Below the pieces are notes generated by a model. That model saw nothing but the letters and a program-made list of their open reading frames with translations, ran no database searches and was not told where the DNA came from. Made by a program: the position numbers and the translations under genes. This document shows positions 21,586 through 63,525 of a stretch of DNA of 64,000 bases, piece after piece. The stretch is from an uncultured Candidatus Saccharibacteria bacterium (lineage in GTDB: Bacteria > Patescibacteriota > Minisyncoccia > Phycocordibacterales > UBA2100). Numbering within the stretch: position 1 is the stretch's first letter; each line of letters opens with the position of its first letter. The stretch spans positions 13,637 to 77,636 of the forward strand of contig CAZYLZ010000002.1 in assembly GCA_964648335.1 (NCBI GenBank), in the 5' to 3' direction.

Positions 21586-22008
21586 ATGTCAACCATAAAC
21601 CAGCTCGTAAAGAAGCGCCGCCGCGACAAAATCACCAAGACCAAGACCACTGCTCTTGGCCGTGGCTTTAATGCGCTCGAAAACCGCCCTACCTTCTATC
21701 CGGCACCGTTCAAGCGCGGCGTCTGCACCAAGGTGACCACCAAAACCCCTCGTAAGCCGAACTCAGCTATCCGCAAGATCGCTCGTGTCCGCCTTACCAA
21801 CGGCATGGAAGTCACCGCCTACATTCCGGGCGAGGGACATAACCTCCAGGAGCACTCGGTCGTACTTTTGCGCGGAGGTCGCGTTAAGGACATCGGTGTT
21901 CGCTATACTATTGTCCGTGGAAAGCTCGACGCAACCGGAGTAGAAGCGCGCCGCCGCGGCCGTTCTCGCTACGGTGCTAAGCGCCCTAAGGCAGGAGCCA
22001 AGAAATAA
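21586..22008 (+). CDS. rpsL: Ribosomal protein S12
   Basis: [48 protein letters not shown] is the S12 signature. Confidence 0.95.
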
Positions 22009-22019
22009 TCCCATACTAT

Positions 22020-22481
22020 ATGCGACGCCCAGTAAAAAACCGCAACATGCCAGATCCAGACGAGAAGTTTGGTTCGGTTAAGATTGCAAAGCTCATCAAC
22101 TACGTCATGATCCGCGGCCAGAAGGACACTGCGCGCAAGATCGTCTACGGAGCATTCGATATTTTGGCTAAAGAAGGCGATCCGGTGATCATCTTTGACG
22201 AGGCACTTGCCAACGTCGAGCCACAGGTAGAGGTCCGCTCACGCCGCGTGGGAGGTGCTAACTACCAGGTTCCGCGCGAGGTCAACCCAGGACGCAAGAT
22301 GTCTTTGGCCTATCGCTGGATCATCCAGGCTGCACAGTCCAAGAAAGGAAAGCCGATGATGGAGAAGCTTGCAAACGAGCTCTTGGCAGCACGCAAGGGA
22401 GAGGGTGAGGCAGTCGCCAAGCGCGACAACACGCATAAGATGGCAGAAGCTAATAAGGCCTTCGCCCACTTCGCCTGGTAA
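22020..22481 (+). CDS. rpsG: Ribosomal protein S7
   Basis: S7 family sequence along its full length (MRRPVKNR...ARKGEGEAVAKRDNTHKMAEANKAFAHF). Confidence 0.95.
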   Translation: MRRPVKNRNMPDPDEKFGSVKIAKLINYVMIRGQKDTARKIVYGAFDILAKEGDPVIIFDEALANVEPQVEVRSRRVGGANYQVPREVNPGRKMSLAYRWIIQAAQSKKGKPMMEKLANELLAARKGEGEAVAKRDNTHKMAEANKAFAHFAW

Positions 22482-22660
22482 GTACCGCGCCGGTTCGGCG
22501 CATTGCTTTGTCGCGTGCGGCAGAATTTCTTTCACAATACGTTAAGTATTGCTCAAGAATATTCTGCCTTCGCTTCGCACACTGCATCCAAACCAGCGCG
22601 GTACTTGAAACTCCAGTCCGCCTCGTTCTCTATCTCAAACTAAACGTCCGCAAATACAGC

Positions 22661-22717
22661 CGATACAAAAATGCCGCTCACAATACTTCTAGTATTGTGA
22701 GCGGCATTTTTGTATCG
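22661..22717. terminator. 57-bp perfect palindrome (27-bp arms, 3-nt centre), ending in a T-run; probable bidirectional terminator or a protein/recombination site
   Basis: cgatacaaaaatgccgctcacaatact-tct-agtattgtgagcggcatttttgtatcg; lies between the rpsG stop and the stop of the minus-strand gene at 22748; the surrounding 0.7 kb is markedly AT-richer than the flanks. Confidence 0.55.
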
Positions 22718-22747
22718 CGCCTGTCACCGTATCTCAAATCTCGCGTT

Positions 22748-23140
22748 CTAGCGGATGAAATTTGGGGAAATAAAATTATGTGGATGCAAAGTAAAATCCG
22801 TCAAATAGAGAAAATAGAATGAGATACCAAATACGACGAAGGTACATATCAGTTTTAGAATACGAACTACGCTTGTGTCGCGCGCCCAATCGTATTCCCA
22901 CAAGAATAGAATGCCCCAAAGTATCGCAAAAACCGGTGCGTATATTACGCTAAGTAGTAACACATCGAAGAGCCCAGATCTTCCTTGGCCGACAACGAGT
23001 AGAATAGCGGAAATAATCGGCGAGAGTGCAAGGAGGCCACTTACGTCACGAATGATTTTTGGGACTCTGCTCATTTCGTTCAAAATAGTAACACAGGTGA
23101 GAGATTGGAGGTCATCAAAAAATGACACGACCCATCGCAT
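22748..23140 (-). CDS. Hypothetical small membrane protein (130 aa, about 4 TM helices)
   Basis: Hydrophobic helices; lies in an AT-richer patch inserted between rpsG and fusA. Confidence 0.45.
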   Translation of the reverse strand: MRWVVSFFDDLQSLTCVTILNEMSRVPKIIRDVSGLLALSPIISAILLVVGQGRSGLFDVLLLSVIYAPVFAILWGILFLWEYDWARDTSVVRILKLICTFVVFGISFYFLYLTDFTLHPHNFISPNFIR

Positions 23141-23351
23141 AACAGAATCCAGCCCTCAGCTCTGCACTTTTTTCCTGGTGTCTTTTGCTGCGACCATTCC
23201 TGCTTTGCAGTACTCCACATTAGTTAAAACACACTCGAAAGCACCCTCTGATGTACTCGTTATTTCGCGGTGTGCCAAACAGCAAGAGGTGGCGGTTTGT
23301 TTGTTGAAGGCCTGTATACTATTTGCATAGTAAGTAATCGCTTTTTTCTGT

Positions 23352-23579
23352 ATGAAAGGACCAAGGTTCGAGGTGTACCACGACAAGGCAAAGAAATTTC
23401 GTTTTCGCTTATTGGCTGCAAATGGCGAGCCGGTCGCAATGTCCGAGGCCTACGAGTCTAAAGCGAGCGTCATGAGCACCGTAAAGAGAATCGGTGCTAT
23501 GGCAGCAAAGGCTGCGATCGTCGACATGACTGTCGCTCCAAAAGCGGCACCGGCAAAGAAGGTCGCAAAAAAGAAGTAA
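23352..23579 (+). CDS. DUF1508/YegP-family small protein
   Basis: FEVYHDKAKKFRFRLLAANGEPVAMSEAYESKASVMSTVKRI matches the YegP/DUF1508 repeat (FE.Y.D..G.FRFRL.A.NGE.IA.SEGY.SKA). Confidence 0.7.
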   Translation: MKGPRFEVYHDKAKKFRFRLLAANGEPVAMSEAYESKASVMSTVKRIGAMAAKAAIVDMTVAPKAAPAKKVAKKK

Positions 23580-23604
23580 TAGATACTTTCTTCTGATGTA
23601 AGAA

Positions 23605-23630
23605 AAAGACCGGCCTCATGGCCGGTCTTT
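23605..23630. terminator. Bidirectional rho-independent terminator hairpin (aaagaccggcc-tcat-ggccggtcttt)
   Basis: 11-bp GC-rich stem with A-run/T-run flanks, between convergent genes 23352-23579 (+) and 23636-24127 (-). Confidence 0.6.
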
Positions 23631-23635
23631 GGTGT

Positions 23636-24127
23636 TTAGATAGGGGCATCGCTTGCGAGAATCCCTCCGAGATCCTCGATGAGAAGCTCATAGAACGCCC
23701 GAATCCCATCATCGAGCATAAGAGGTGCACCCTCTCTTTCTTTCGATGCGCAGCCGGAGCTGTCGATGACAATCGCCTGGCCCGATCCTGTGGCGCCGAT
23801 ATCCGTGTACACGTATGTGCAGGCAATCGGTTCGCGAAGTATTTCGGAGCTACCGTTCGGGGCGAAGATCTCCCGTTGGCGGATGACTATCGCATGGTCG
23901 GTCACGACCAACACCGGGACTCCGTTGCGTAGACGATAGTCGACGACGGCCATGGGCTCTTTCGTCTCGGGGTGCTTGATCGAGAGGGTCATCGTGTCGG
24001 ATCGCTTCCCGACGTGCTGAGCCATCCCTCGGAGCAGCTTTTCCACGTTTCGCGCGGGCTCTGCGGCGATGCCTGTGGCACCCAGGAAGATTCCTGACAG
24101 GGCCAGTGCACTCACTATTTTCATCAC
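23636..24127 (-). CDS. Secreted hypothetical protein (163 aa)
   Basis: Signal peptide MMKIVSALALSGIFLGATGIAA; no recognised catalytic motif. Confidence 0.5.
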   Translation of the reverse strand: MMKIVSALALSGIFLGATGIAAEPARNVEKLLRGMAQHVGKRSDTMTLSIKHPETKEPMAVVDYRLRNGVPVLVVTDHAIVIRQREIFAPNGSSEILREPIACTYVYTDIGATGSGQAIVIDSSGCASKEREGAPLMLDDGIRAFYELLIEDLGGILASDAPI

Positions 24128-24296
24128 TTCCTCCTGACAAGTTGCTCAGTACTAGATGCGATACTGCACCCATATCGGGGTTCTGTCTACGGGGAGCGGA
24201 AGGAGCTCTGGCGCTTTTGCATTTTGGGGCTTTTCTGGTACTCTTTCGCAACGAGCTCCGCGCTCCTTTATTTGTTATTCATTGATTGTTTTACGT

Positions 24297-26441
24297 ATGG
24301 AACGAGATTATCCACTGCAGAAAGTTCGAAACTTCGGTATCATCGCGCACATCGATGCGGGCAAGACGACCACGTCCGAGCGCATCCTCTTTTATACCGG
24401 CGAAAGCCACAAGATCGGCGAGGTGCACGAGGGTGACACCGTCACCGACTGGATGGAACAGGAGCGCGAGCGCGGAATCACCATCACTGCAGCGGCGATA
24501 ACTTGCTTCTGGAACCCTACCTACATGGGAACCGACGTCACCTTGAAGCACCGCTTCAACATCATCGACACGCCGGGCCACATTGACTTCACCTCAGAGG
24601 TGCAGCGCTCAATGCGCGTGCTCGACGGAGCAGTCGTCGTCTTTGATGGTGTTGCGGGCGTCGAACCTCAGACCGAGACGAACTGGCGCTATGCCGAGGA
24701 CGCAAACGTCCCCCGCCTCTGTTTCGTAAACAAGCTCGACCGAACCGGAGCATCGTTCGAACGCTCGTTTGGCATGATATTGGAGCGCCTTTCTAAGGAT
24801 GCTGTGCGCATGCAGCTGCCTTTGGGCGAAGAAGACGGATTCGACGGCATGGTGGACCTTTTGACCATGAAAGCTTTCAAGTTCGAAGGAGAGAAGGGAA
24901 AGAACGTTTCGACCTATGATTGCCCGGCAGACAAAGTAGAGGAGGCAAAGAAATATCGCGCCATGCTCGTAGAGAAGATTGTCGAGACCGATGACGCAGC
25001 CATGAGTGCCTACCTCGAGGGTACCGAGCCATCTGTCCCTGAGCTCAAGGCGATCTTGCGCCGCGCAGTCATCGCAAACAAGATCTTCCCGACCTTCTGT
25101 GGATCTGCTCTCAAGAACCGCGGCGTGCAGCTGGTGCTCGACGGCGTCGTTGACTACCTTCCGTCGCCACTGGACCTTCCTCCTGCAAAGGGAGTGAACC
25201 CCGATACCGGCGAAGCGATTACGCGCTCAGCTGATGACAAAGAGCCGTTCTCTGCACTCATCTTCAAGCTGCAGGTAGATCCGTTCGTGGGGCAGCTCTC
25301 GTTCTTCCGTGTGTACAGTGGTACGTTCACCGCGGGAAACTCGGTGTACAACGCGACTACCGGCAAGAAGGAGCGCGTCGGACGCATCGTCCGCCTCCAG
25401 GCAAACAAACGCGAAGAGATTAAGACCGTATTCACCGGAGAAATCGCGGCATTGGTCGGCGTTAAGGAGTCCAAGATCGGACACACCATCTGCGACGAAG
25501 ACAAGCCGATCATTTTGGAAGAGATCGAGTTCCGCGAGCCGGTTCTCCGCGCCCGCATCGAGCCTAAGACCAAGGGCGATCAGGAGAAGATGGGCATGGC
25601 GCTCAACAAGCTTTCAGACGAAGACCCAACATTCCGTGTCTCGAGCGACGAAGAGACTGGCGACACCATCGTAGCAGGCATGGGAGAGCTCCACCTCGAG
25701 ATCATGGTGGACCGCATGAAGCGCGAGTTCGGTGTCGAAGCTACTTTGGGCAAGCCACAGGTGGCGTACCGCGAGACAATCACTGGCTCTGCTGATGTCG
25801 AGAACAAGTACATCAAGCAGACCGGAGGTCGCGGACAGTATGGCCACGTCAAGATCAAGATGAAGCGCCTCGAGCCGTTGGTAGAGGGCGAGAAGATCAA
25901 GAACAACGTCAAGCGCGAAGACCACTTCGAGTTCACCAACAACATCAAGGGAGGAGTCATCCCGCAGGAATTCATCCCAGCAGTGGAGAAGGGAATCCGC
26001 GAGGCTATGACCCGTGGCATCCAGGCGGGGTACCCGGTCGTCGATATTGCAGTCGAGCTCTACGACGGTTCCTACCACGACGTCGACTCATCCGAAATCG
26101 CATTCAAGATCGCGGCATCGCAGGCATTCCAAGAGGCAGCTCGCCAGTCGAAGCCGGTACTCCTCGAGCCGGTCATGAAGGTGGTCGTGGTTACCCCAGA
26201 CAAGTTCATGGGCGACATCACCGGTAACTTCAACTCGAAGCGCGGACAGATCCAGTCGATCGACGACCGCTCGGGAGGCCTCAAGGTCATCTCGGCATTC
26301 GTGCCACTTTCAGAAATGTTCGGCTACACGACGACCCTGCGTTCGATGACCGAAGGCCGTGCAAACAACACCATGACCTTCGACCACTACGAGGTCGTTC
26401 CTAAGAACGTCGCAGACGAAGTCATCGCATCGCGCAAGTAA
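24297..26441 (+). CDS. fusA: Elongation factor G
   Basis: [23 protein letters not shown] and NKLDR GTPase motifs; 714 aa from the ATG at 24297 (the ORF track's upstream extension is spurious). Confidence 0.95.
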
Positions 26442-26464
26442 AAGAAAGAAATGTCTTTAATGAC

Positions 26465-26496
26465 AACCACCGGCTCAAAGCCGGTGGTTTCTTTCC
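26465..26496 (+). terminator. fusA rho-independent terminator (aaccaccggc-tcaaa-gccggtggtt plus TTTCTTTCC)
   Basis: 10-bp GC stem immediately after the fusA stop, followed by a T-rich run. Confidence 0.55.
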
Positions 26497-27035
26497 TGCC
26501 CTGCATCCGCAGGGCTAGAACAAGGTCGGGAGCTCTCTCTGATAGTGGCGTTGGTTGTTAATGTAGTTACGAATCTGGTGTTCATTTGTTCCGATGGTGG
26601 ATATGAAGTAACCCCGTGCCCAAAAAGGCCCCTGAGGTAGCTTTTTCGCTTTCTTCTTGAGCCACATGGATGTCTTGCCTTTCATCACCTGCACGATGTA
26701 GGCAGCGGAGTACTTCGGTGGGATTGAGAGAAACAGGTGTATATGTTCGTCTCCTACATGCCATGCGTGGATGGAGAGCTCTTTCCACTTCGCGATGTAC
26801 TTGAACATACGCTTCAATTCGAGTTTAATGAACTTGTCCGTCAGTATCTTTCCGCGGTACTTCGGACACCAGACTAGGTGGTAGTCACAGACCCATGTCG
26901 CATGGGACTGTTTATACAGACGTCTATTCATGGTCGGTTCTGTCACCGTTGGTTAGTAATATCGACCACCGGTGATTGTACCGAGGGCTCCGCCTTGAAA
27001 CGCACACCCCAGCTACGCTGGGGGTTTATGTTGTT
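26497..27035 (-). mobile_element. IS200-like insertion sequence (tnpA only, no tnpB) with subterminal hairpins; boundaries approximate
   Basis: tnpA flanked by imperfect palindromes (gccctgcatccgcagggc at 26499-26516; ccccagctacgctgggg at about 27010-27026), inserted immediately downstream of the fusA terminator. Confidence 0.5.
26515..26931 (-). CDS. tnpA: IS200/IS605-family transposase TnpA (HUH Y1 transposase)
   Basis: HLVWCPKYRGKIL (HuH) and the catalytic-Tyr region ...GYFISTIG...; 138 aa; AT-richer than the flanking DNA. Confidence 0.85.
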   Translation of the reverse strand: MNRRLYKQSHATWVCDYHLVWCPKYRGKILTDKFIKLELKRMFKYIAKWKELSIHAWHVGDEHIHLFLSIPPKYSAAYIVQVMKGKTSMWLKKKAKKLPQGPFWARGYFISTIGTNEHQIRNYINNQRHYQRELPTLF

Positions 27036-27037
27036 AA

Positions 27038-27071
27038 GCAAGAACCGCACGAAGTGCGGTTCTTGCTTTTT
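27038..27071 (+). terminator. Rho-independent terminator (gcaagaaccgcac-gaa-gtgcggttcttgc plus TTTTT)
   Basis: 13-bp stem followed by a T5 run. Confidence 0.6.
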
Positions 27072-27129
27072 ACTTTTGCACAGGCCATTCCATCGAGAGG
27101 CGAGCTTGCTGATACAATCAACGGTGTAT

Positions 27130-27522
27130 ATGGCAGATCAAGCCGTGCTCGGCGATGACGTGATTCTTAAGAAAGCGCTCTTGGCGGCGGCGTTGTTTGC
27201 ACTCGCCAGTGGTCTCGCGCTCCTTATGTACTGGTTACAGGTCCCCCAACCAGAAGGTCCTGGATCGCTGCAGCTGCGGCCGACGACAATCGAAGAAAAA
27301 GCCGATGTACTGCGGTCGGTGAGCGAGAGCGGTTCGCGAACCAGTGCGAATGGAGATGAAAAGCTCAAGATACTGGAGAGTCTTTCGCAGACACAACCTA
27401 TAGATGATGTGCGCGAAGCTACCACGACGGTTCCTGCCATGCCGAGATTGGACACGCAGGCATCCGGAGGTATGAGCGAAGAAGAGAAGCTCAAGATCCT
27501 GTCGGGGCTCAAGGCTCGTTAA
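27130..27522 (+). CDS. Membrane-anchored hypothetical protein (130 aa)
   Basis: ATG at 27130; TM helix ALLAAALFALASGLALLMYWL; acidic Ser-rich tail with repeated EEKLKIL. Confidence 0.45.
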   Translation: MADQAVLGDDVILKKALLAAALFALASGLALLMYWLQVPQPEGPGSLQLRPTTIEEKADVLRSVSESGSRTSANGDEKLKILESLSQTQPIDDVREATTTVPAMPRLDTQASGGMSEEEKLKILSGLKAR

Positions 27523-27525
27523 CCT

Positions 27526-28428
27526 ATGACTGCAGCAATAAAAGAATACGGCGTAACCACGATTGCATCGGTCGTGGCGATTCTCATGATAGTCGTGGCC
27601 GTCTTCGCTAAGCCTACCGATGTCCTTTCACAGAGCGCAACCGCAGTCACCGGCTGGGCGTGGAGTGATACCATCGGATGGATTTCGCTCAACTGTTCAG
27701 ATCTCGGCACATGCGCCACATCGAATTATGGGCTCTCGAAGGCGGCAAACGGGACGTTGAGCGGCTATGCGTGGAGCGACAACGTCGGGTGGGTAAGCGC
27801 CAATGCAGCCGATCTCGTCGGCTGTCCGTCGGCGCCCTGCACAGCAGTAGTCTCGGGCACCAGCTATATGGGTTGGCTCAAGGCGGTCTCGGGCGGTTCG
27901 GCGCAAAGCGGAGGCTGGGATGGTTTTATAAGTCTGAGCGGCACCGGTTATGGACTCACACAATCGGATGCGATAGTTCTCGGGTACGCATGGGGAAGCG
28001 ACAACCTCGGCTGGCTCGATTTCTCGGCCGCATATCCTTGCGCCGCGACGGCAGGATATTACTGCTCGGGTAATACACAGATGTATCGCGACAACGCATG
28101 CAACACCTCGACTATCCAATCATGTTACTCGTGTGTAGCCGGCACGGGCCAGTGTCTTCCGCCCCCGGTCGTCACCGGTACGTTTACCATACATCCAGTT
28201 CTTGTTCATTCGGGTGCGACCACAACCGTGACATGGACCACGCAAGACGCGTACTACTGCATCGTATCAGGAACAAATGGCGATACCTGGACGGCAACCG
28301 CCGGAACGCGGACATCAAGCGTAATCACGTCGCCCGTCACCTTTACTCTTACCTGTGGCGGACCCGCGGGTACTACCACCGTGAGTGCAGGCACTTCTAC
28401 GGTTGTCCCATCATGGCAAGAATACTAG
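27526..28428 (+). CDS. Secreted/anchored repeat protein with three G(Y/W)AWS(D)N(V/I)GW(I/V/L)S Trp-rich repeats and a Thr-rich beta-rich C-terminus
   Basis: N-terminal hydrophobic anchor; repeats GWAWSDTIGWIS, GYAWSDNVGWVS, GYAWGSDNLGWLDFS; C-terminal region TVTWTTQDAYYCIVSG...TFTLTCGG looks like an Ig/fibronectin-like beta module. Confidence 0.55.
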   Translation: MTAAIKEYGVTTIASVVAILMIVVAVFAKPTDVLSQSATAVTGWAWSDTIGWISLNCSDLGTCATSNYGLSKAANGTLSGYAWSDNVGWVSANAADLVGCPSAPCTAVVSGTSYMGWLKAVSGGSAQSGGWDGFISLSGTGYGLTQSDAIVLGYAWGSDNLGWLDFSAAYPCAATAGYYCSGNTQMYRDNACNTSTIQSCYSCVAGTGQCLPPPVVTGTFTIHPVLVHSGATTTVTWTTQDAYYCIVSGTNGDTWTATAGTRTSSVITSPVTFTLTCGGPAGTTTVSAGTSTVVPSWQEY

Positions 28429-28551
28429 ACTGTATGTGGAATGGCGAATCGTCGACAATGAATCCATGCTTTTCTACTACAAGTAGTTTGTCCGATTTGT
28501 GCACATTATCTGTTATTGCAAAACAGACGTCTGCCGTATCATGTGTAGTAC

Positions 28552-55774: not shown

Positions 55775-55842
55775 TTCAATTAGAAAATGGCTCAGACGGC
55801 CATTTTTGATTTATAGTCCAATAGTGCAACAGGAGAAGTCAG

Positions 55843-56565
55843 ATGAACTTCGACAGTCAGATCGGTTCAAAGCTCTTGCTCACGGTGACTGCCGTTCAGG
55901 GACGATCGAAGCCCTCCAAGCTTTCATTCGGCGTGGAATTCGAGCAGTATGACATGCTGCTCGAAAAACATGCTTCGGACCCTGTTCCGGAGGAAGTAAC
56001 CAGCACCGATTACTGGGAAGCGGGTGGACGCGACGTTAGTCGCTGGTATGGTGTGTCGCCCAACAAGTCGATGCGTATCTATCACGTCAGCGGCGATTCG
56101 CGTGACCTTCTTGTTGAAGGTGACAAGTGGGAAGTCGAGGTGGTGAAGTGCTATCTCAATCCCAACGAAGCTCGTACTCGCGATAACCGCCGCAAAATTC
56201 ATTACACGGTCATGCCGATTCGGCGTGACGTGCATGTACATCGGGCGTCCGTTGATTTCGCTCGTAAGTCAGTCCTCACCACCTATCGTTGCGGAACTAA
56301 TACGCAGGAGGACCGGTCCGAATGCGATGTATATGTGCGCAGGTATCGTCTCGAAAACGGCTGGGTCGTTCAGGCTCTCGAAGCCTCGAAAGACGGCGTC
56401 ATCATCGAGGTTCGGGTGAACCAGATACTGGAACCGAATCAATATATGACGGCACTCCAGGCTGAATCTGGACACCATATGGACACCAAGAGCCTTCGCC
56501 GGATGTACGCCGCCGTGCCATCGGTGCCGAACGACTTTCTCAAGCACATGAACAAGGCTGCATAA
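55843..56565 (+). CDS. Hypothetical protein (240 aa) inserted between rplN and rplX
   Basis: SD AGGAGAAG; own promoter; terminator hairpin gaccccggc-atgagc-gccggggtc plus T-run at 56579-56612. Confidence 0.55.
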   Translation: MNFDSQIGSKLLLTVTAVQGRSKPSKLSFGVEFEQYDMLLEKHASDPVPEEVTSTDYWEAGGRDVSRWYGVSPNKSMRIYHVSGDSRDLLVEGDKWEVEVVKCYLNPNEARTRDNRRKIHYTVMPIRRDVHVHRASVDFARKSVLTTYRCGTNTQEDRSECDVYVRRYRLENGWVVQALEASKDGVIIEVRVNQILEPNQYMTALQAESGHHMDTKSLRRMYAAVPSVPNDFLKHMNKAA

Positions 56566-56723
56566 CGCGACAATCCCTGACCCCGGCATGAGCGCCGGGG
56601 TCTTGTCTTTTAAGGATAAAAATGTATACTGCGGCAACCATTTAGTGTTTCCAATCGCCCCTGCGGGAGTCAGGTACGAGTCTGAGTGGAACAATCTCCC
56701 ACATCATCAATTCAATATTTGCT

Positions 56724-57029
56724 ATGAAAATTAAAAAGGGAGACAAAGTAATAGTGGTGTCCGGCAAGGATAAGGGAAAGACCGGCACGGTCGCGAAGGC
56801 ATTTCCGAAGGAGCTCAAGGTACTCATCGAGGGTATCAACATGGCAAAGCGCCACATGCGCCCGAATGCAAAGAATCGCATGGGCCAGATAATCGAGAAG
56901 TCGATTCCGGTCCACGTAAGCAACGTCATGATCGCAGACCCGAAGGGCGGCAAGCCAACGCGCGTTGGTATCAAGAAGGATGCAAAGGGATCGTCGCGCA
57001 TCGCTAAGAAGAGCGGATCCGTTCTGTAA
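56724..57029 (+). CDS. rplX: Ribosomal protein L24
   Basis: MKIKKGDKVIVVSGKDKGKTG (KOW motif). Confidence 0.9.
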   Translation: MKIKKGDKVIVVSGKDKGKTGTVAKAFPKELKVLIEGINMAKRHMRPNAKNRMGQIIEKSIPVHVSNVMIADPKGGKPTRVGIKKDAKGSSRIAKKSGSVL

Positions 57030-57038
57030 AACAAATAT

Positions 57039-57599
57039 ATGGCTACAAAAACACTCACTCGCGTACAAAAGCAGAAGGCAACCTTCGAGGCGCTCAAGGG
57101 CGATTTCGGATGGACCAACCCCATGCAAGCTCCCAAGGTGACCAAGATTATCGTCGCTACCGGAGTCGGCTCTAAGTCAGACAAGAAGAAGAAGGAGTTC
57201 ATCGGCGAGCGCCTCACGACCCTTGCAGGACAGAAGGCGGTCGCTACCTTGGCCAAGAAGTCTATCGCTACCTTCAAGGTACGCGAGGGCGACGTCGTTG
57301 GTCACCGCGTCACCTTGCGCGGCGCTCGCATGGAAGCGTTCTTGGACAAGCTCGTTCACATCGTCCTCCCACGAACGCGCGACTTCCGCGGCATCACGCC
57401 TAATGCTATCGACGAAATTGGAAACATCACTGTGGGCATCAAGGAGCACACTGTGTTTCCCGAGGCTGCCGAAGAAGACATCAAGGACGTGTTCGGACTC
57501 GCGGTCACTATCGTGACCACCGCCAAGAACAAGGCAGAAGCAGAGGCATTTTTGCGCTCGATCGGCCTTCCGCTCCAGAAAGAAGAAGGAAAGAAATAA
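57039..57599 (+). CDS. rplE: Ribosomal protein L5
   Basis: L5 family over its full length. Confidence 0.95.
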   Translation: MATKTLTRVQKQKATFEALKGDFGWTNPMQAPKVTKIIVATGVGSKSDKKKKEFIGERLTTLAGQKAVATLAKKSIATFKVREGDVVGHRVTLRGARMEAFLDKLVHIVLPRTRDFRGITPNAIDEIGNITVGIKEHTVFPEAAEEDIKDVFGLAVTIVTTAKNKAEAEAFLRSIGLPLQKEEGKK

Positions 57600-57612
57600 T
57601 TTCACGATAAAG

Positions 57613-57644
57613 AAAAACACCTCACATCCCGTGAGGTGTTTTTT
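57613..57644. terminator. Bidirectional terminator (aaaaacacctcac-atcc-cgtgaggtgtttttt)
   Basis: 11-bp stem flanked by A-run and T-run after the rplE stop. Confidence 0.6.
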
Positions 57645-57660
57645 GTTGCGCATATCCCCA

Positions 57661-58044
57661 CTAGGCTAGTATCCATTGCAGCAGGGACTTTTCTCCGGGC
57701 GTCAGATGAATGATAGTTGCGAATTCCCATCGTGCATGGGCATGTTCACGCTCGGTGAGATCCTCCTTAAGTGCTATTCGTTGTTCCAGGGTTACGCTTT
57801 GTTCCCAACGGATCGCACAGAATGACCACCAGGGATTCTTGGCGCGGAGCAATGCCTTGACCGTACGCTCGGTCCCAATCTCGGCGCATGCGCGTCGGAT
57901 GATCTGACCTTGTCCGTACTTGCCGAGTCGTATCGCTGCCGCTGTCTTTTTGGCGCCGGTTTCCAGAGCAAGCCGATACGCGGCTTTTTGCTCGTCGTCC
58001 ATACGGATTCGTATCATGCCGTGAGTCGAACGTATACGTTTCAT
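57661..58044 (-). CDS. Small HTH-type protein, possibly a transposase/recombinase-like DNA-binding fragment (127 aa)
   Basis: ATG at 58044 after an AAAGGA SD; AAYRLALETGAKKTAAAIRLGKYGQGQIIRRACAEIG has HTH character. The longer 245-aa frame in the track overlaps the plus-strand gene at 58151 and is probably spurious. Confidence 0.4.
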   Translation of the reverse strand: MKRIRSTHGMIRIRMDDEQKAAYRLALETGAKKTAAAIRLGKYGQGQIIRRACAEIGTERTVKALLRAKNPWWSFCAIRWEQSVTLEQRIALKEDLTEREHAHARWEFATIIHLTPGEKSLLQWILA

Positions 58045-58150
58045 CGAGAATCCTTTCTGTGTACTTTCTCGGTACACCCTAGCCGAAAAGTGCCTAGGTA
58101 CCAAGCTATGGTATAACCAGCGAAGCTCAGATATATGAGGAGGTTTCGAA

Positions 58151-58522
58151 ATGATTGCAATCACTATCGATGCCGGTCCGGCATCTCGTATCAAGAAAAG
58201 GTATCGACTAAAGGAAGAAGTAGACGCTTCGAAGCTTTGCCCCGACGACCCCGCTGCTTTGGAGCTTGCGATGAAGATAGGGAAGGTCGAGGGATTGCTC
58301 GATGCGCTCGCATATATGCACTGTATCGATGCTAGTTTCTCGATATCGCTCGAGCATGGGGTGGCGGTCGCGGCAGGTACCATAGTGGTGTCGAGCAACG
58401 ATTCGTACCTCGGAGTCAGAGGCTTGGTGGCTTTGGTCGAGAACGATGCCGCGAAAATCGCGGCCGATTATCCCGGTGTCACAGTCCGGCTCACAGCCGA
58501 TATGACCGCAGAGATGATATAA
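58151..58522 (+). CDS. Hypothetical protein (123 aa)
   Basis: Strong SD GAGGAGG before the ATG; terminator ccccggcc-acaat-ggccgggg plus T6 at 58529-58563. Confidence 0.5.
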   Translation: MIAITIDAGPASRIKKRYRLKEEVDASKLCPDDPAALELAMKIGKVEGLLDALAYMHCIDASFSISLEHGVAVAAGTIVVSSNDSYLGVRGLVALVENDAAKIAADYPGVTVRLTADMTAEMI

Positions 58523-58561
58523 GAATACGCCCCGGCCACAATGGCCGGGGCGGTTGGTTTT

Positions 58562-59350
58562 TTAGCCCGAATCCTCTTCGACGGAACCGGCAAGCAGGGG
58601 ATGGTGGTGCTTGCGATACTGAGACAGGCGTCGGAAGTCGCGGATCAGAAGCTCTCGCCCCTTCACCTCTCCGTAGTTGCGGTATTCGTACCGAAACAGT
58701 CGCCAGCCAGTGAGGATGAACATGCGCAAGAGCCGTACCGGTCCTGCGAATGCGCGAAGGATACGGAACCGCTTCATGCACCGGATTGCCCACCTATGGA
58801 AGTGGCTCAGGTACCGGCGATACCACGTGCCCACAATCATATCAGCGATGGCCGCATAAGTACGACGGACGAGAGCGGAGGCGACGAACCCGATAGGGAA
58901 GAAGAGCAGCCAGAATCCGTGGGTAAAGTACGGCTTCAGGAAGTGCCAGAGCCAGAGCTGGATACCGACAATTCCTATCGATATGGCCAGCTTCGTAGCG
59001 AACGATCGGCGGTGCCATAGGCGACGGCTGAACCGGCAGAGGGTACGTACCCTCCATCGGGTCTGCCGTATGCGTGATATCTTCTTTTCGTCATCCAGCC
59101 AGTACTCGAGTGCCACGCCTGTGCCTGCGGCGGTCAAGGGCTGCAAGAGTCTGCGCGCTCCGACCGAAGTCATAAGCGGTGCCAGAGCTTCGGCGATCAT
59201 GCCGCCCAAGAAACGAGCCGAGACGGCGATCCACTCGACGAGCGCCCTGAAGGCGCCACCGATGAGCGGTATCTCGAATAGATAGTCGAGGATGGCTATA
59301 AGTGCGATGATGCTCGCGAGGGCTAGGTACCAGAGGCGATGTCTCGCCAT
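58562..59350 (-). CDS. Arg-rich polytopic membrane protein (262 aa)
   Basis: Six or more TM helices; many RR/RxR loops; no recognised family. Confidence 0.5.
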   Translation of the reverse strand: MARHRLWYLALASIIALIAILDYLFEIPLIGGAFRALVEWIAVSARFLGGMIAEALAPLMTSVGARRLLQPLTAAGTGVALEYWLDDEKKISRIRQTRWRVRTLCRFSRRLWHRRSFATKLAISIGIVGIQLWLWHFLKPYFTHGFWLLFFPIGFVASALVRRTYAAIADMIVGTWYRRYLSHFHRWAIRCMKRFRILRAFAGPVRLLRMFILTGWRLFRYEYRNYGEVKGRELLIRDFRRLSQYRKHHHPLLAGSVEEDSG

Positions 59351-59494
59351 GGTGTCTCCTTTCTTGCAATTACTTGCACGGATATACCTCGGTCAGATTA
59401 TACTATGTTTTAAGCCATTTTCAAGTATTCGCGAGCGACTGGTGTGTACATTGGCGCCACTGGGCACCTCCGATGGGCTGTAACCTGCAAGGGT

Positions 59495-59523
59495 TTGACT
59501 TTTAGCGGTACTTCGCGTATATT
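59495..59523 (+). promoter_or_regulatory. Sigma70-type promoter (TTGACT, 17 nt, TATATT) with about 165-nt leader before rpsZ
   Basis: ttgact at 59495-59500; tatatt at 59518-59523; 24 of 29 positions identical to the promoter at 52913-52941. Confidence 0.5.
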
Positions 59524-59691
59524 TGCCGAGCCTCGTAGGGGGCCTGGTATTTGAGCCGATTGAAGCACTTGCTGCGTAGATTACCCTCGAAACTCAGGTC
59601 ACGCGATGGAGTCTCTCTAATCTTGGCTGTGAGGCCTCGATGCAAGGACTCCAAAGTCTCCTTTGCGCGCGCACCTATTTTTCACCACCAT

Positions 59692-59877
59692 ATGGCTAAG
59701 AAATCAATGATCGTAAAGGCTAACCGCAAGCCTAAGTTCAGCAGCCGCACAGTGCGACGCTGCAAGAGCTGCGGACGCCCACGCGGATTCATGCGCGATT
59801 TCAACCTTTGCCGTATCTGTTTCCGCGAGCAGGCGCTCGAGGGCAACATTCCGGGTATAAAGAAGTCATCTTGGTAA
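59692..59877 (+). CDS. rpsZ: Ribosomal protein S14, Zn-ribbon (type Z)
   Basis: 61 aa; [20 protein letters not shown] zinc motif. Confidence 0.9.
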
Positions 59878-59884
59878 TATATTT

Positions 59885-60280
59885 ATGATCACCGACCCTG
59901 TAGCAGACTTCATAATCCGCCTTAAGAACGCATCTGCGGTCAAGAAGACCGTGGTTTCGACTCCGTACAGCAAGCTTGTCATGGCTATCGCCGAGAAGCT
60001 CAAGCAGGACGGATTCATCGCATCCGTCGAGAAGTCCGGAAAGAAGGTCCGCAAGAACATCGAGGTCACCCTCATGTACGAGAAGAACGGCCTCCCAACC
60101 ATCTCGGGCGTCAAGCGCGTATCTAAGCCAGGACGCCGACTCTACCGCGGATTCAAAGAGATCGTCCCTGTTCGCTACGGAACCGGCACACTCGTACTTT
60201 CCACACCCAAAGGAATCCTTACCGACACCGAAGCCCGCAAGGAAAAGGTCGGCGGCGAGACCCTGTTCGAAATCTGGTAA
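59885..60280 (+). CDS. rpsH: Ribosomal protein S8
   Basis: MITDPVADFIIRLKNA... is the S8 family signature. Confidence 0.95.
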   Translation: MITDPVADFIIRLKNASAVKKTVVSTPYSKLVMAIAEKLKQDGFIASVEKSGKKVRKNIEVTLMYEKNGLPTISGVKRVSKPGRRLYRGFKEIVPVRYGTGTLVLSTPKGILTDTEARKEKVGGETLFEIW

Positions 60281-60289
60281 TACATCTAT

Positions 60290-60829
60290 ATGTCACGCAT
60301 AGGAAAACAGCCAATCGCAATCCCCGCAAACACGCAGGTAACCGTGTCCGACAGCACTGTGTCGGTCAAGGGGCCAAAAGGGGAGCTCTCTAAGAAGTAC
60401 GCATCGTCAGCGATTTCGGTCGTCGTCGAGGGTACGGAGGTAATCATCGCTCCTCTCAAAGAGACCCGCGAGTCGAAGTCGCTCTGGGGCACTACCGCTG
60501 CTCATATCAAGAACATGGTCAAAGGCGTCAACGAGCCATACACCAAGCGCCTCATCCTTTTCGGAGTCGGTTACAAGGCAGAAGTAAAGGCAACCAATCT
60601 CGTCATGGCGCTCGGTTTCTCTCACCCGGTCATCGTCGAAATTCCGAAGGGACTCACGGTAACGACAGACAAGGAGGGTATTACCGTGGTAGGACCAGAT
60701 AAGGAGATGGTCGGACAGTTCTCGGCGACGGTACGCAGCCTCAAGAAGCCAGAGCCGTACAAAGGCAAAGGATTCCACTACTCCGACGAGACCATCTTGA
60801 GAAAGCAGGGTAAGAAGGCATCCGCATAA
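60290..60829 (+). CDS. rplF: Ribosomal protein L6
   Basis: MSRIGKQPIAIPANTQV... is the L6 family signature. Confidence 0.95.
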   Translation: MSRIGKQPIAIPANTQVTVSDSTVSVKGPKGELSKKYASSAISVVVEGTEVIIAPLKETRESKSLWGTTAAHIKNMVKGVNEPYTKRLILFGVGYKAEVKATNLVMALGFSHPVIVEIPKGLTVTTDKEGITVVGPDKEMVGQFSATVRSLKKPEPYKGKGFHYSDETILRKQGKKASA

Positions 60830-60835
60830 ACATAT

Positions 60836-61183
60836 ATGGCTACACTCACAAAATCAGAACAGCGAATCCGCAGGCACAACCGTGTCCGCTCTAAGGTCAT
60901 CGGTACTGCCGAGCGTCCTCGCCTGTCGGTCTACAAGTCGAACACGCGCATTTCTGCGCAGCTCATCGACGACGACAAGGGTGTCACGCTTGCAGCGGTG
61001 TCGTCTGCAACTGAAAAGGGAAAGACCCCACAGGAGCGGGCAGAGTCTGCCGCAAAGGCGCTCGTCGCAGCCGGAAAGACCAAGGGTATCTCGCAGGTCG
61101 TGTTCGATCGCGGCGGATTCCGATACATCGGTACTATCAAGGCGTTTGCAGAGGCGGCGCGTAATGCAGGTTTTCAATTTTAA
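60836..61183 (+). CDS. rplR: Ribosomal protein L18
   Basis: RPRLSVYKSNTRISAQLIDD...VFDRGGFRYIG is the L18 signature. Confidence 0.9.
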   Translation: MATLTKSEQRIRRHNRVRSKVIGTAERPRLSVYKSNTRISAQLIDDDKGVTLAAVSSATEKGKTPQERAESAAKALVAAGKTKGISQVVFDRGGFRYIGTIKAFAEAARNAGFQF

Positions 61184-61186
61184 TGT

Positions 61187-61774
61187 ATGTCTGAACCAGT
61201 AACCACAACAGCACCATCCACTCCATCGACCGGAGCACCACGCGACAGCCGCGGACCTCGCAGTAATGATCGCCGTGGACCACGCCCAGGAGGCGGCGGA
61301 GACCGCCGTGGAGGAGGCCGTGGAGGACGCCGCGACGACCGCCAGTCCGAGTTCGCTCAGAAGATGATCAGCATCCGCCGTGTGGCCCGTGTGGTCGCCG
61401 GAGGACGCCGCTTCAGCTTCTCGGTCACTATGGTATTGGGAGACAAAGCAGGACGTGTTGGCGTTGGTGTTGGCAAAGCAGGCGACACCCAGCTCGCTAT
61501 CGAGAAGGCATCGCGCGCTGCAAAGAAGCACATGATCACTCTCAAGCTCACCGAGACCAAGAGCCTTCCGTTCAATGTCGAGGCAAAGTACTGCGCGTCT
61601 GTCGTCGAGATCCGTCCGTCGAAAGGCCGAGGACTCGTCGCCGGTTCTGCAGTACGAACCGTGCTTGAGCTCGCCGGTGTCAACGACGTAACCGCAAAGC
61701 TCTTGTCGCGCAGCAAGAACCCTATCAACAACGCCCGCGCTGCTATCAAGGCGCTCGAAAGGATCGCCGCATAA
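61187..61774 (+). CDS. rpsE: Ribosomal protein S5 with Arg/Gly/Pro-rich N-terminal extension
   Basis: S5 dsRBD and C-terminal domains (IRRVARVVAGGRRFSF...VGVGKAG...); about 55-aa RG-rich N-terminal extension. Confidence 0.9.
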   Translation: MSEPVTTTAPSTPSTGAPRDSRGPRSNDRRGPRPGGGGDRRGGGRGGRRDDRQSEFAQKMISIRRVARVVAGGRRFSFSVTMVLGDKAGRVGVGVGKAGDTQLAIEKASRAAKKHMITLKLTETKSLPFNVEAKYCASVVEIRPSKGRGLVAGSAVRTVLELAGVNDVTAKLLSRSKNPINNARAAIKALERIAA

Positions 61775-61784
61775 TTTTATCTCT

Positions 61785-62243
61785 ATGACTCACGGACTAC
61801 ACTCACTCAAACGATCGGGACCTCGCAAAGCCGACCGCGTCGGACGCGGACAGGCGAGCGGTCGCGGAAAGACCTCTGGTCGCGGTACCAAGGGTCAGAA
61901 GGCGCGCGCGGGACACAAGATTCGCCCAGAATTGCGCGATATCATCAAGAAGATCCCGAAGCGCCGCGGATACGGAAAAAACCGCTCACGCACCGTCGAC
62001 GGAACGCGCCCTAACCACACTGCCGTCTCTTTGGAGCGCCTCGAGATCGCATTCGCTTCTGGCGAGACCGTCTCCAAGAACTCGCTCGTCGAAAAGAATA
62101 TTCTCACGATGCGCCGTGCAAACTCGGCCCCTATCAAGATCCTCGGAGACGGAACCATCACTAAAAAACTTACCGTAACAGGCATCGCTACGTCGGCTTC
62201 GGCCAAGAGCGCCATAGAAAAAGCAGGAGGTAGCGTCGCATAA
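61785..62243 (+). CDS. rplO: Ribosomal protein L15 (directly after S5; no L30 gene)
   Basis: GRGxxSGRGKTSGRGTKGQKAR is the L15 signature; rpmD is absent between rpsE and rplO. Confidence 0.9.
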   Translation: MTHGLHSLKRSGPRKADRVGRGQASGRGKTSGRGTKGQKARAGHKIRPELRDIIKKIPKRRGYGKNRSRTVDGTRPNHTAVSLERLEIAFASGETVSKNSLVEKNILTMRRANSAPIKILGDGTITKKLTVTGIATSASAKSAIEKAGGSVA

Positions 62244-62250
62244 CTCATAT

Positions 62251-63525
62251 ATGTTCGAGACATTCTTCCGAAAGCTCCAGATCGTTGTCTCAGATCCCTC
62301 GATCCGCAATCGAGTACTCTTTACTATAGGTGCGCTCGCACTCTTCCGTCTCTTGGCTACTATTCCGATTCCGGGCGTCAATCTCGTCGCACTCGAGAAC
62401 CTCTTCTCGCAAAACGCGTTCTTGGGACTCTTGAACGTCTTCTCGGGAGGCGGACTCTCTAAGCTCTCAATCGTCATGCTCGGCGTGGGTCCCTACATCA
62501 CTGCATCTATCATCATGCAGCTTCTGACGGTGCTCTCTCCGACCTTGAAGCAGGTGTACCAGGAAGAGGGAGACGCAGGCCGACAGCGATTCACCCAATG
62601 GTCGCGCATCCTCACTATTCCGCTCGCATTCATGCAGGCATTCGCATTCTTGCTCCTCTTGCGCCAAGAAGGTGTGTTGCTCCAGCTCACCACTCTCGGT
62701 CTCGTCGCTAATATCTTCGTCGTCGCCGCAGGATCTATCTTCCTCATGTGGTTGGGCGAGATCATCACTGAGTTCGGCATCGGCAACGGCATGTCACTCC
62801 TCATCTTTGCAGGCATCATCTCAGCAATCCCAGGCAGCATTTCTCAGCTCTTGTTCACGTTCGATGTATCTCAGATTCCTGTATATATCGCGCTTACGGT
62901 TGCTGTAATCCTCATGACGGCAGCAGTCGTCTTTATCACCGAAGCAGAGCGTCCTATTCCTATCACGTACGCGCGGCGCGTTCGCGGCAACAAGGTCTTC
63001 GGCGGCGTCTCGACCTACCTGCCGCTTCGCGTCAACCAGTCGGGAGTCATTCCGATAATCTTCGCGCTCTCGATCCTCCTGTTCCCACAGATGATCGCGC
63101 AGTTCTTGGCTCGTGCCAACATCGCTCACGTATCTTACGGCGCACAGAAGGTTGTCGCGTTCTTGAGTAACACGTGGGTCTATGGCATCGCGTACTTCTT
63201 GCTCGTGTTCGTCTTTACGTACTTCTACACTGCGATTACCTTCGAGCCAAACCAAGTCGCGAAGAATCTCCAGAAGAACGGAGCATTCATCCCGGGTGTC
63301 CGTCCTGGCAACACGACAGCCGAGTACCTGGGTAATATCATCACCCGCATTACCTTGGTCGGCGCGCTCTTCTTGGGCTTCATCGCAGTAATGCCGATAA
63401 TCCTTCAGGGCATCACGGGCATCACAGCGCTCACTATCGGCGGTACAGCACTTCTCATCGTCGTATCCGTTGTCCTCGACGTCGTCAAAAAAATCGACGC
63501 TCAGACCTCGATTCGCGAGTACTAA
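62251..63525 (+). CDS. secY: Preprotein translocase subunit SecY
   Basis: Ten-TM SecY topology and motifs (GLGNGISLLIFAGI-like GNGMSLLIFAGI), 424 aa. Confidence 0.95.
   Translation: MFETFFRKLQIVVSDPSIRNRVLFTIGALALFRLLATIPIPGVNLVALENLFSQNAFLGLLNVFSGGGLSKLSIVMLGVGPYITASIIMQLLTVLSPTLKQVYQEEGDAGRQRFTQWSRILTIPLAFMQAFAFLLLLRQEGVLLQLTTLGLVANIFVVAAGSIFLMWLGEIITEFGIGNGMSLLIFAGIISAIPGSISQLLFTFDVSQIPVYIALTVAVILMTAAVVFITEAERPIPITYARRVRGNKVFGGVSTYLPLRVNQSGVIPIIFALSILLFPQMIAQFLARANIAHVSYGAQKVVAFLSNTWVYGIAYFLLVFVFTYFYTAITFEPNQVAKNLQKNGAFIPGVRPGNTTAEYLGNIITRITLVGALFLGFIAVMPIILQGITGITALTIGGTALLIVVSVVLDVVKKIDAQTSIREY

Follow-up and report, generated by a model that had tools for sequence, protein, structure and literature searches.

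A canonically ordered ribosomal-protein supercluster split at seven junctions by unrelated genes

The str-S10-spc supercluster is the textbook case of a gene order that selection for co-transcription and translational coupling has frozen. Phylogenomics and binning of candidate phyla radiation (CPR) bacteria assume that 16 syntenic ribosomal-protein (r-protein) genes lie together on one short contig. In the horizontal gene transfer (HGT) hotspots known from elsewhere, a few core-flanked intervals hold most variable genes, with strain-specific cargo that recombination in the flanks is thought to spread. Here we describe a 64,000-nucleotide stretch of contig CAZYLZ010000002.1 (the window, to whose first letter coordinates refer), in which the supercluster, running from rpsL to secY (21586-63525), is split at seven junctions by unrelated genes, referred to as inserts 1 to 7 in their order along the window.

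Remodeling of this operon cluster has been described in Gammaproteobacteria and Bacilli, where 163 events were traced in 204 genomes over ~2-2.5 billion years (Gy), and 65% of the rearrangements fell between operons, leaving the operons intact (PMC8046335). Small insertions in that cluster include tusDCB, bfd-bfr and nrdHEF; a first insertion was suggested to relax selection on synteny, with duplications, transposons and HGT as candidate routes (PMC8046335). For CPR ribosomes, the passages of Tsurumaki et al. 2022 (PMC9297842) that deal with gene loss and with protein and rRNA size record the absence of uL30 and the adjacency of rpsE and rplO in all CPR, and contain no insertion-fragmented cluster. 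A full-text literature search found no description of such cluster fragmentation in CPR bacteria.

A canonical gene order divided into short blocks

Open reading frames (ORFs) were taken from a six-frame inventory and their translations scanned against Pfam. All 25 core genes from rpsL to secY matched their own family (E values of 1e-7 to 1e-124), the products being S12, S7, EF-G, EF-Tu, S10, L3, L4, L23, L2, S19, L22, S3, L16, L29, S17, L14, L24, L5, S14, S8, L6, L18, S5, L15 and SecY. They lie on the plus strand in the canonical order rpsL-rpsG-fusA-tuf-rpsJ-rplC-rplD-rplW-rplB-rpsS-rplV-rpsC-rplP-rpmC-rpsQ-rplN-rplX-rplE-rpsZ-rpsH-rplF-rplR-rpsE-rplO-secY; rpmD (L30/uL30) is absent, the rpsE-rplO spacer measuring 10 bp. 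At 17 of the 24 junctions the spacer is 2-20 bp. The seven long spacers are rpsG/fusA (1,815 bp), fusA/tuf (15,494 bp), tuf/rpsJ (4,461 bp), rpsJ/rplC (698 bp), rplB/rpsS (1,752 bp), rplN/rplX (985 bp) and rplE/rpsZ (2,092 bp). Contiguity of str, S10 and spc is lost through these spacers of 0.7-15.5 kb, six of which lie inside the canonical E. coli operons; core DNA occupies 14,517 of the 41,940 bp and accessory DNA ~27 kb. The Pfam matches and spacer lengths thus bear out both the preserved order and the seven split junctions reported in an initial annotation of the window.

All seven junctions were reproduced at 99.9-100% identity in contigs from at least 12 other samples and other pipelines (JGI 3300045330/31/32/33/72/78 and 3300005039; Logan DRR685535, SRR23702519/22 and SRR12487045/46; ENA ERZ4216102), found by exact-protein look-ups with S12, S7, EF-Tu, S10, L2, the IS200 transposase and the rplN/rplX protein. 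One 33-kb contig extends from upstream of rpsL through fusA and the entire 15-kb fusA/tuf insert to tuf. The fragmented cluster is real chromosomal architecture, not a chimera.

Sites with a hairpin and T-run, resembling intrinsic terminators, occur 3' of rpsG (a GC hairpin, 22487-22501), fusA (26465-26489), tuf (~43153-43185), rpsJ (48011-48037), rplB (51247-51272), rplN (weak), the single rplN/rplX gene (hereafter X), rplE, secY and most cargo genes; many are bidirectional, and those after tuf and rpsJ were identified by eye. Between 41 and 61 kb, 45 terminator-like sites were counted, versus 19.7 ± 4.9 in shuffles. The intergenic portion, only 14.5% of that region, holds 9 of its 10 strongest terminators and every one of the 8 promoter-like sites that match at 10/12 positions or more (P ~1e-5 to 1e-7). 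Promoter-like sites precede fusA, tuf (TTGACG-16-TAGTAT, 41814-41841), rpsJ (by eye), rpsS (TTGACA-17-TACTAT, 52913-52941), X (a perfect TTGACA-16-TATAAT), rplX and rpsZ. At the level of consensus matches, the terminators and fresh promoters first noted at the junctions are therefore supported.

Nine transcription units are predicted from these signals, all core genes in them being identified by Pfam: rpsL-rpsG (21586-22008 and 22020-22481; Ribosom_S12_S23 and Ribosomal_S7); fusA (EF-G, 714 aa, 24297-26441, +; GTP_EFTU, EF-G_D2, EFG_III, EFG_IV and EFG_C); tuf (EF-Tu, 41936-43135, +); rpsJ as a single-gene block (47597-47965, +); a 145-aa cargo gene with rplC, rplD, rplW and rplB (core block 48553-51239, +); rpsS, rplV, rpsC, rplP, rpmC, rpsQ and rplN (52992-55738, +); X; rplX and rplE (56724-57599, +); and rpsZ (61 aa, zinc type), rpsH, rplF, rplR, rpsE, rplO and secY (59692-63525, +).

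Recurrent break points and turnover of the inserted genes

Relatives were recruited by S3; GTDB species representatives contributed 35 loci and metagenomes 47 (68 distinct after deduplication). All 35 GTDB loci are labeled as Patescibacteria metagenome-assembled genomes (MAGs; Kaiserbacteria, Paceibacterota, Taylorbacteria, Wolfebacteria and others), and the metagenome contigs carry no taxonomic label. S3 identity ranged from 56 to 76%; the S3 search found nothing closer than the best values of 73% among GTDB representatives and 76% among metagenome contigs. Judged by these similarities, the source is a Paceibacteria/Kaiserbacteria-like genome of the Patescibacteria/CPR.

The core proteins of the window were mapped onto the relatives and each junction was measured, a gap of at least 400 bp counting as a break. 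Four junctions are filled in 49-86% of relatives: fusA/tuf in 6 of the 7 examined, rpsJ/rplC in 11 of 17, rplB/rpsS in 19 of 39 and rplE/rpsZ in 18 of 27. The others are broken in no more than one relative each, namely tuf/rpsJ in 1/17, rpsQ/rplN in 1/46, rplN/rplX in 0/45 and all remaining junctions in none (n = 24-63; n = 1 for rpsL/rpsG and rpsG/fusA). The first four are clade-wide break points and old slots; the breaks at rpsG/fusA (from one relative), tuf/rpsJ and rplN/rplX are lineage-specific or patchy.

The gaps of the relatives hold an M50 peptidase, surface proteins of 1,176 aa (GSDH/LamG/PKD) and 1,054 aa (PG-binding/PKD), an EamA transporter, a methyltransferase, a PaaX/Cas2-like protein and many orphans, and an all-against-all BLASTP comparison found only a few cargo families common to different lineages. 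Cargo at the same junction thus belongs to unrelated Pfam families, differs in size and, as described below, differs by presence and absence at 95% identity. Two parts of the cargo in the window are old: a module of 300-aa, fiber and 137-aa genes also lies between fusA and tuf in relatives L004 and L008 (32-64% identity), and L001 and L004 carry weak homologues of the 145-aa secreted protein (22-28% identity) likewise at rpsJ/rplC. Of the two interpretations first offered, an integration hotspot and lineage-specific remodeling, both apply, with four recurrent junctions of mostly non-homologous cargo and three that are lineage-specific or patchy.

The synteny comparison suggested in the initial annotation revealed two very recent events. 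A sister population (L096, L100 and L101; contigs from other samples with ~95% DNA identity to the window) was found only via its identical L2 protein, and the comparison covers inserts 4-7. It shares the rpsJ/rplC gene, a gene for a DnaA domain IV (DnaA-IV) protein in rplB/rpsS, and the rplE/rpsZ genes. It lacks 51251-52305 (1,055 bp, two genes of rplB/rpsS), the rplB and DnaA-IV terminators abutting at that point, and 55738-56713 (976 bp, the rplN/rplX cassette), where the TAA of rplN is followed by ATTTTGCAT and then the ATG of rplX. These 9 nt are the usual rplN-rplX spacer in relatives without X, and the window retains them at the 3' edge of its insert. Neither polymorphic site shows a target duplication or repeat. 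Turnover at rplN/rplX and rplB/rpsS looks recent, and gain and loss are continuing at the population level.

A further locus from another sample, L110, matches the window at 100% identity across most of 25.4-32.9 kb, apart from three tracts at 71-88%; it was rejected as a sister population, being the same species with recombinant patches. The diverged tracts lie at 27773-28070 (the 300-aa gene), 30623-31070 (a TPR gene) and 31373-32700 (a 174-aa gene and the PRTase/PQQ gene). They resemble either recombination mosaics or hypervariable stretches of envelope-related genes, and a mosaic would imply that homologous recombination with diverged alleles is active at the locus.

Comparison of GC content and codon usage, also proposed initially, did not mark the inserts as foreign, except for a low-GC patch of 900 bp. 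Background genes have a GC content at third codon positions (GC3) of 0.645 ± 0.03, most cargo genes fall at 0.50-0.72 with similar codon scores, and only 22500-23400 is clearly deviant. This native-like composition points to donors of similar composition (within the clade) or to relocation within the genome, not to distant HGT.

We consider it probable that the gaps are permissive inter-operon slots between ultra-conserved genes, that their cargo is exchanged by recombination, and that this is an architecture of the Paceibacteria lineage. What this model has to explain is observed: the order, the breaks, their reproducibility and clade distribution, the heterogeneity of cargo, and presence/absence polymorphisms with exact boundaries. 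On the model, the few long operons of the supercluster would have given way to about nine short blocks, hairpin-ended and promoter-restarted with gene order kept, and the spaces between blocks would serve as permissive slots in which accessory genes accumulate and turn over. A terminator and promoter pair at a junction would allow further insertion to spare co-transcription and hence to be nearly neutral, the same relaxation of selection as proposed for Gammaproteobacteria and Bacilli once a first insertion has occurred (PMC8046335). The conserved flanking r-protein genes could act as homology arms, through which DNA taken up from relatives would recombine cargo in or out. Stoichiometry of r-proteins would then be set by at least eight promoters, not by translational coupling along S10 and spc transcripts. 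A ComEC/Competence gene lies in the window (15503-16846, +), as do three minus-strand ORFs (460, 208 and 602 aa, 78-3898) with type IV (pre)pilin-like N-termini recognized by eye, without a family search; ComEC and these candidate pilins would equip the cell for natural transformation, which bears on the recombination model.

Several points weigh against this model or narrow its base. Coverage of the sister population extends to inserts 4-7, and the flanks of the polymorphic inserts are of roughly uniform identity to it, with no recombination tract clearly tied to the edges of either. No repeats, attachment-site (att)-like sequences or target duplications were found at the junctions, and the junctions have no repeats, miniature inverted-repeat transposable elements (MITEs) or att-like sequences in common, so that no specific integration mechanism is indicated. 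Promoters and terminators are consensus matches, i.e. predicted, throughout, and promoter-like sites in total are not enriched (13 versus 12.3 expected). None of the four recurrent junctions is a canonical E. coli operon boundary. The relatives were selected through S3 peptides in common, reach at most 76% S3 identity and allow comparison of rpsG/fusA in one case.

The rplN/rplX cassette and competing explanations

Insert 6 (55739-56713, +) is, as first described, one gene with its own promoter. Its perfect consensus match (55747-55774) is followed by a hairpin with T-run (55783-55807), the 240-aa ORF X (55843-56565, +), a terminator (56579-56602) and a downstream promoter, TTGTCT-16-TATACT (56603-56630), with a ~90-nt leader before rplX. 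Pfam, NCBIfam, PHROGs and PADLOC yielded no match for X, and a scan of viral contigs was negative. A word-indexed search of 5.8 billion proteins returned two homologues, and a profile search of 1.84 billion representatives returned 25. An AlphaFold2 (AF2) model built from 20 sequences has a predicted local distance difference test (pLDDT) score of 88 and a predicted TM-score (pTM) of 0.71, with a beta-rich body and three C-terminal helices; a 3-sequence model (pLDDT 43) was unusable. Foldseek found no match to the 20-sequence model in PDB (best E value 0.32, TM-score below 0.25) or BFVD.

Six contexts of the X family are on record, that of the window and those of five homologues, and in four of them the gene directly follows rplN (window, L121, L122-124, L126-127); in L121 and L122 it also precedes rplX. 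In L125 it follows a DksA-like zinc-finger ORF. In L118 (33-35% identity) it stands directly after GTAGGTTCGAGTCCTACCGCCGGAGCA (~3700-3730), which resembles a tRNA T-arm and 3' acceptor strand; no tRNA is called there by ARAGORN or Rfam, and the sequence may be an att-like tRNA fragment. Non-coding parts accompany the X gene, namely TTGACA-16/17-TAtAaT, a transcript-start hairpin with T-run, GTAGacAGGAG and a GC-rich terminator. Where rplX follows (window, L121 and L122), TTGTCTTTT-N13-GTATAyT and a CATTyAGgGTTTCCAA leader also precede it, and the downstream flank of L126, cut by the contig end, differs from these three. The hairpin was seen by eye only, RNAalifold on six cassette 5' untranslated regions giving no covariation support for it.

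A bolder reading, to which we give limited credence, is that the 976-bp unit is a self-contained, site-preferring cassette of a new kind that moves between Paceibacteria lineages into the same spc junction, CPR r-protein operons being cassette platforms. The 5' hairpin with T-run would insulate X from rplN read-through, the outward promoter and leader would restart rplX-rplE, and X alleles would diversify or be swapped far faster than the host. X might mediate its own maintenance or have a ribosome-linked conflict function (toxin, immunity or anti-phage); more broadly, the most conserved genes would be used as recombination arms by CPR cassette platforms. No recombinase or site-specific machinery was found for the cassette.

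We regard as unlikely a purely vertical history, in which a few ancient insertions in a Paceibacteria ancestor were followed by divergence and differential loss only. It is consistent with the conservation in place of the fusA/tuf fiber module and the rpsJ/rplC secreted protein across family-level distances and with the native-like composition of the insert genes, and fast-evolving envelope proteins can lose detectable similarity; however, the cargo at rplB/rpsS and rplE/rpsZ comes from different Pfam families in sizes of 0.45-4.1 kb, which is not the divergence of one gene, and presence/absence differences exist at 95% identity. The X family also argues against it. In a neighbor-joining (NJ) host tree of seven proteins (942 columns, 100 bootstrap replicates), the nearest neighbors of X-bearers lack X (window with L096, 100% bootstrap; L126 with L091, 99%; L122 with L055, 59%), X-bearers are monophyletic in 0/100 replicates, and one gain in the ancestor would have to be followed by ~12 independent losses over the sampled tree. 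Between L121 and L122, L14 is 95% identical, the flanking DNA 80-93% and the X proteins 43%. Repeated acquisition or allele swapping of X at rplN/rplX seems to us more likely than pure vertical descent.

Functional recruitment, by which the inserted genes would act with the translation apparatus (X as a ribosome-associated protein, DnaA-IV as a regulator of the rpsS block) and their position would be selected for co-expression, seems to us improbable. The placement of X after rplN in most sampled contexts speaks for it, as does the DnaA-IV helix-turn-helix (HTH) gene, whose upstream region also holds the rpsS promoter-like site and which the sister population has kept. Yet about half of the cargo proteins have a signal peptide or membrane anchor, or are surface-polysaccharide and redox enzymes, and no DnaA-box cluster lies near rpsS. 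X has a predicted promoter and terminator of its own, which would uncouple it from rplN and rplX; the sister population does without it, and two of its contexts are non-ribosomal. A marginal profile match of X to eukaryotic uS13 (E 0.03) also speaks for recruitment, but the matched region is predicted to be beta-strands, uS13 is helical there, and Foldseek gives no match.

Slightly less probable still is delivery of the cargo by transposons or site-specific elements, with IS200 as one vehicle and the X cassette itself a site-specific element. Transposon-directed rearrangement has been proposed for operon-cluster insertions (PMC8046335), and the window has an IS200-type transposase directly after fusA, a 138-aa Y1_Tnp protein (PF01797, E 2.8e-31, nearly full length; tnpA, 26515-26931, -). 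Hairpins surround tnpA at 26465-26489, 27007-27023 and 27036-27068 (a 15-bp stem, upstream of tnpA). The X cassette is moreover self-contained, occupies the same site in non-sister lineages and in L118 stands beside the tRNA-like 3' fragment. Against this, the IS200-type element, which adjoins the fusA terminator hairpin, accounts for ~0.6 kb of 27 kb of insert DNA and is the single IS copy in the window. An identical TnpA occupies the same fusA-side site in 13/13 contigs (including JGI 33000453xx and Logan SRR12487045/46, SRR35242010, DRR685535 and SRR23702522), so that nothing points to recent movement; the element seems to be fixed and is possibly domesticated. The junctions yielded no further recombinase or integrase, nor any inverted-repeat ends, attC-like sites or target duplications, and X is unlike any known transposase or integrase. 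An assembly chimera or mis-join, in which unrelated contigs were stitched into the r-protein cluster and against which the initial annotation had cautioned, is effectively refuted even though the source is a metagenome, where chimeras occur, both by the independently assembled JGI, Logan and ENA contigs and by relatives from unrelated studies broken at the same four junctions.

Contents of the inserts and comparison with known systems

Together the inserts hold ~33 credible genes, many without a family, and a crude hydropathy test finds an N-terminal hydrophobic segment or membrane spans in 17 of the 33 proteins. The cargo named initially (Y1 transposase, fiber, redox and polysaccharide genes, M23 peptidase, DnaA-IV) is largely confirmed by Pfam and PHROGs. 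PHROGs and PADLOC gave no match for X and the insert-5 and insert-7 proteins submitted, nor did PADLOC for those of insert 3, the exceptions being the fiber C-terminus and the DnaA-IV protein (one weak PHROG, function unassigned). NCBIfam, searched with X, the insert-5 and insert-7 proteins and several proteins of inserts 2, 3 and 4, returned only partial DnaA matches and a sub-threshold amphi-Trp match. No RNA genes were found in the window by Rfam at gathering thresholds or by ARAGORN.

Insert 1 (rpsG/fusA, 22482-24296) had been read as a 1.8-kb AT-rich patch with three genes. The length stands, at 1,815 bp, and the arrangement is identical in 6 other assemblies; AT-richness is confined to ~900 bp (22500-23400), and the credible genes are a DUF1508 gene (23352-23579, +) and one for a 162-aa signal-peptide protein (23636-24124, -). 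The patch has a GC content of 42-47% versus ~55%. Its ORFs show GC3 of 0.43-0.47 and negative codon scores; they are unlikely to be genes, and the patch is probably non-coding. A perfect 27-bp inverted repeat lies within it (22661-22717), with a loop of 3 nt and flanked by A5 and T5, and the region 22482-22760 folds far better than shuffles (z = -11.7). The palindrome could serve as a terminator in both directions, in an insert that is decayed or non-coding. The patch showed no similarity to phage or plasmid records and no Rfam match; miRNA-like matches from a relaxed Rfam search of insert 1 were rejected as caused by the palindrome.

Insert 2 (fusA/tuf, 15.5 kb, 26442-41935) has genes on mixed strands and lies wholly on the 33-kb JGI contig. 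After tnpA it encodes a 130-aa protein (27130-27522), a 300-aa membrane-anchored protein (27526-28428) and a 405-aa fiber protein (28552-29769), whose C-terminus is a Peptidase_S74/phage tail-fiber chaperone domain with PHROGs tail-fiber matches. There follow a 137-aa protein (29780-30193), a TPR protein (30271-31011), a 174-aa membrane protein (31325-31849, -), a protein with a PRTase domain and a PQQ propeller (31863-33599, -) and a 431-aa membrane protein (33623-34918). The remainder comprises a rhodanese (35168-35641), proteins of 92 aa (35670-35948) and 383 aa (35986-37137), a DsbA-like protein (DsbA/thioredoxin, 37151-37864), a GDSL-like protein (37879-39021, -), a methyltransferase (39045-39659, -) and a double GT2 protein (39761-41761).

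Insert 3 (tuf/rpsJ, 4.46 kb, 43136-47596) was first described as eight small genes and an M23 peptidase. The M23 peptidase and several signal peptides are there; the small genes number seven, of which that for the M23 peptidase and two others lie on the minus strand (43253-43762, -; 43937-44350; 44376-44684; 44757-45860; 45960-46247; M23 peptidase, 46282-46944, -; 47215-47394, -). Most are set apart from one another by bidirectional terminators (44631-56, 45878-902 and 46251-76). Insert 4 is the single secreted gene reported at rpsJ/rplC (48090-48527, +), a 145-aa protein with a signal peptide and C-terminal membrane anchor. Because no terminator lies 3' of it, this gene is probably co-transcribed with rplC and heads that operon.

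Insert 5 (rplB/rpsS, 1,752 bp, 51240-52991) contains the three genes noted there, for a 57-aa protein (51278-51451, -), a 148-aa Cys-rich protein (51802-52248, +) and the DnaA-IV protein (52354-52809). The strand of the last is corrected to minus, divergent from rpsS and its promoter-like site. Only the C-terminal ~100 positions of DnaA models match (Bac_DnaA_C residues 49-116; NCBIfam TIGR00362 residues 39-136, at 82.5 bits versus a cut-off of 343.9). The product was rejected as DnaA, having domain IV (HTH) alone and no match to the AAA+ domain III. It may be a local regulator. A scan for the DnaA box TTATCCACA allowing 1 mismatch found only 8 sites, dispersed over the window and none of them close to rpsS or the DnaA-IV gene.

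Insert 7 (rplE/rpsZ, 2,092 bp, 57600-59691) is present in the sister population at ~91% identity. Its genes number three, as annotated, encoding 127 aa (57661-58044, -), 123 aa (58151-58522, +) and a 262-aa membrane protein (58562-59350, -), with a bidirectional terminator (58528-58552) and promoter-like sites at 59424-59397 (-) and, before rpsZ, at 59495-59523 (+).

Several core proteins carry low-complexity extensions: L23 (49964-50386) has a Lys/Ala-rich N-terminal stretch of ~45 aa, S5 (61187-61774) an Arg/Gly-rich one of ~55 aa, S19 (52992-53324) a Lys/Ala-rich C-terminus and S10 (47597-47965) an N-terminal extension. S17 measures 83 aa in the window versus 93 aa in the sister locus L096. 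At the 5' end, genes for an M50 peptidase and a NUDIX hydrolase (19865-21453), not rpoB-rpoC, stand before rpsL; the M50 peptidase also lies 5' of rpsL-rpsG in relative L034, and a different one is the rplB/rpsS cargo in L001 and L007. Beyond secY (63526-64000), a terminator hairpin (~63545-63575) is followed by a Nudix-box ORF from ~63703, with no adk, map, infA or rpmJ; the supercluster may be broken an eighth time there, or end. Farther upstream, two adjoining MscL-family genes (134 and 121 aa) occupy 14656-15433, according to the Pfam annotation of a matching JGI contig.

The clade tolerates breaks inside operons, reuses four sites, and gains and loses cargo between populations 5% apart; such tolerated, reused and still-changing breaks suggest that constraint acts on order within blocks and not on contiguity. 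Small-genome episymbionts must then balance r-protein stoichiometry with many promoters. In practice, variable inserts of 1-15 kb will split r-protein markers across contigs. The slots concentrate envelope and secreted proteins (the fiber module, M23 peptidase, glycosyltransferases and DsbA), plausible candidates for host-interaction genes, and the rplN/rplX cassette family offers a test case of an orphan gene repeatedly occupying one position in the most conserved locus.

Integron cassettes, which are usually promoterless, resemble the rplN/rplX insert as a single-ORF unit with precise gain and loss at one site and diverse alleles. The latter differs in having its own promoter and terminator and in sitting inside an r-protein operon; none of the window ORFs scanned carried an integrase domain, there is no attI or attC, and the cassette ends show no repeats or attC-like inverted repeats. 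With IS200/IS605 elements the window shares a Y1 (HUH) TnpA, here flanked by strong, putatively subterminal hairpins, without the multiple or mobile copies of that group (13 contigs, one site). As in HGT hotspots, the same core-flanked interval carries different cargo in each related genome here; in contrast to them, the flanks are r-protein operons, normally cold, most slots hold 1-7 genes, and the window has no integrases, prophages or tRNA genes. In its lack of uL30 and its adjoining rpsE and rplO, the window agrees with the CPR ribosomes treated in the cited passages of PMC9297842. The closest likeness is to known operon-cluster remodeling (PMC8046335; PMC6735719), in which small unrelated gene sets are inserted into the same ancient cluster and order is kept. 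The window differs in having seven breaks in one genome, six of them inside str/S10/spc operons, with four clade-recurrent breaks of changing cargo and two inserts polymorphic at 95% identity. The case is the same process as that remodeling, but inside operons, at four recurrent sites, with turnover, and with polymorphism within 5% divergence.

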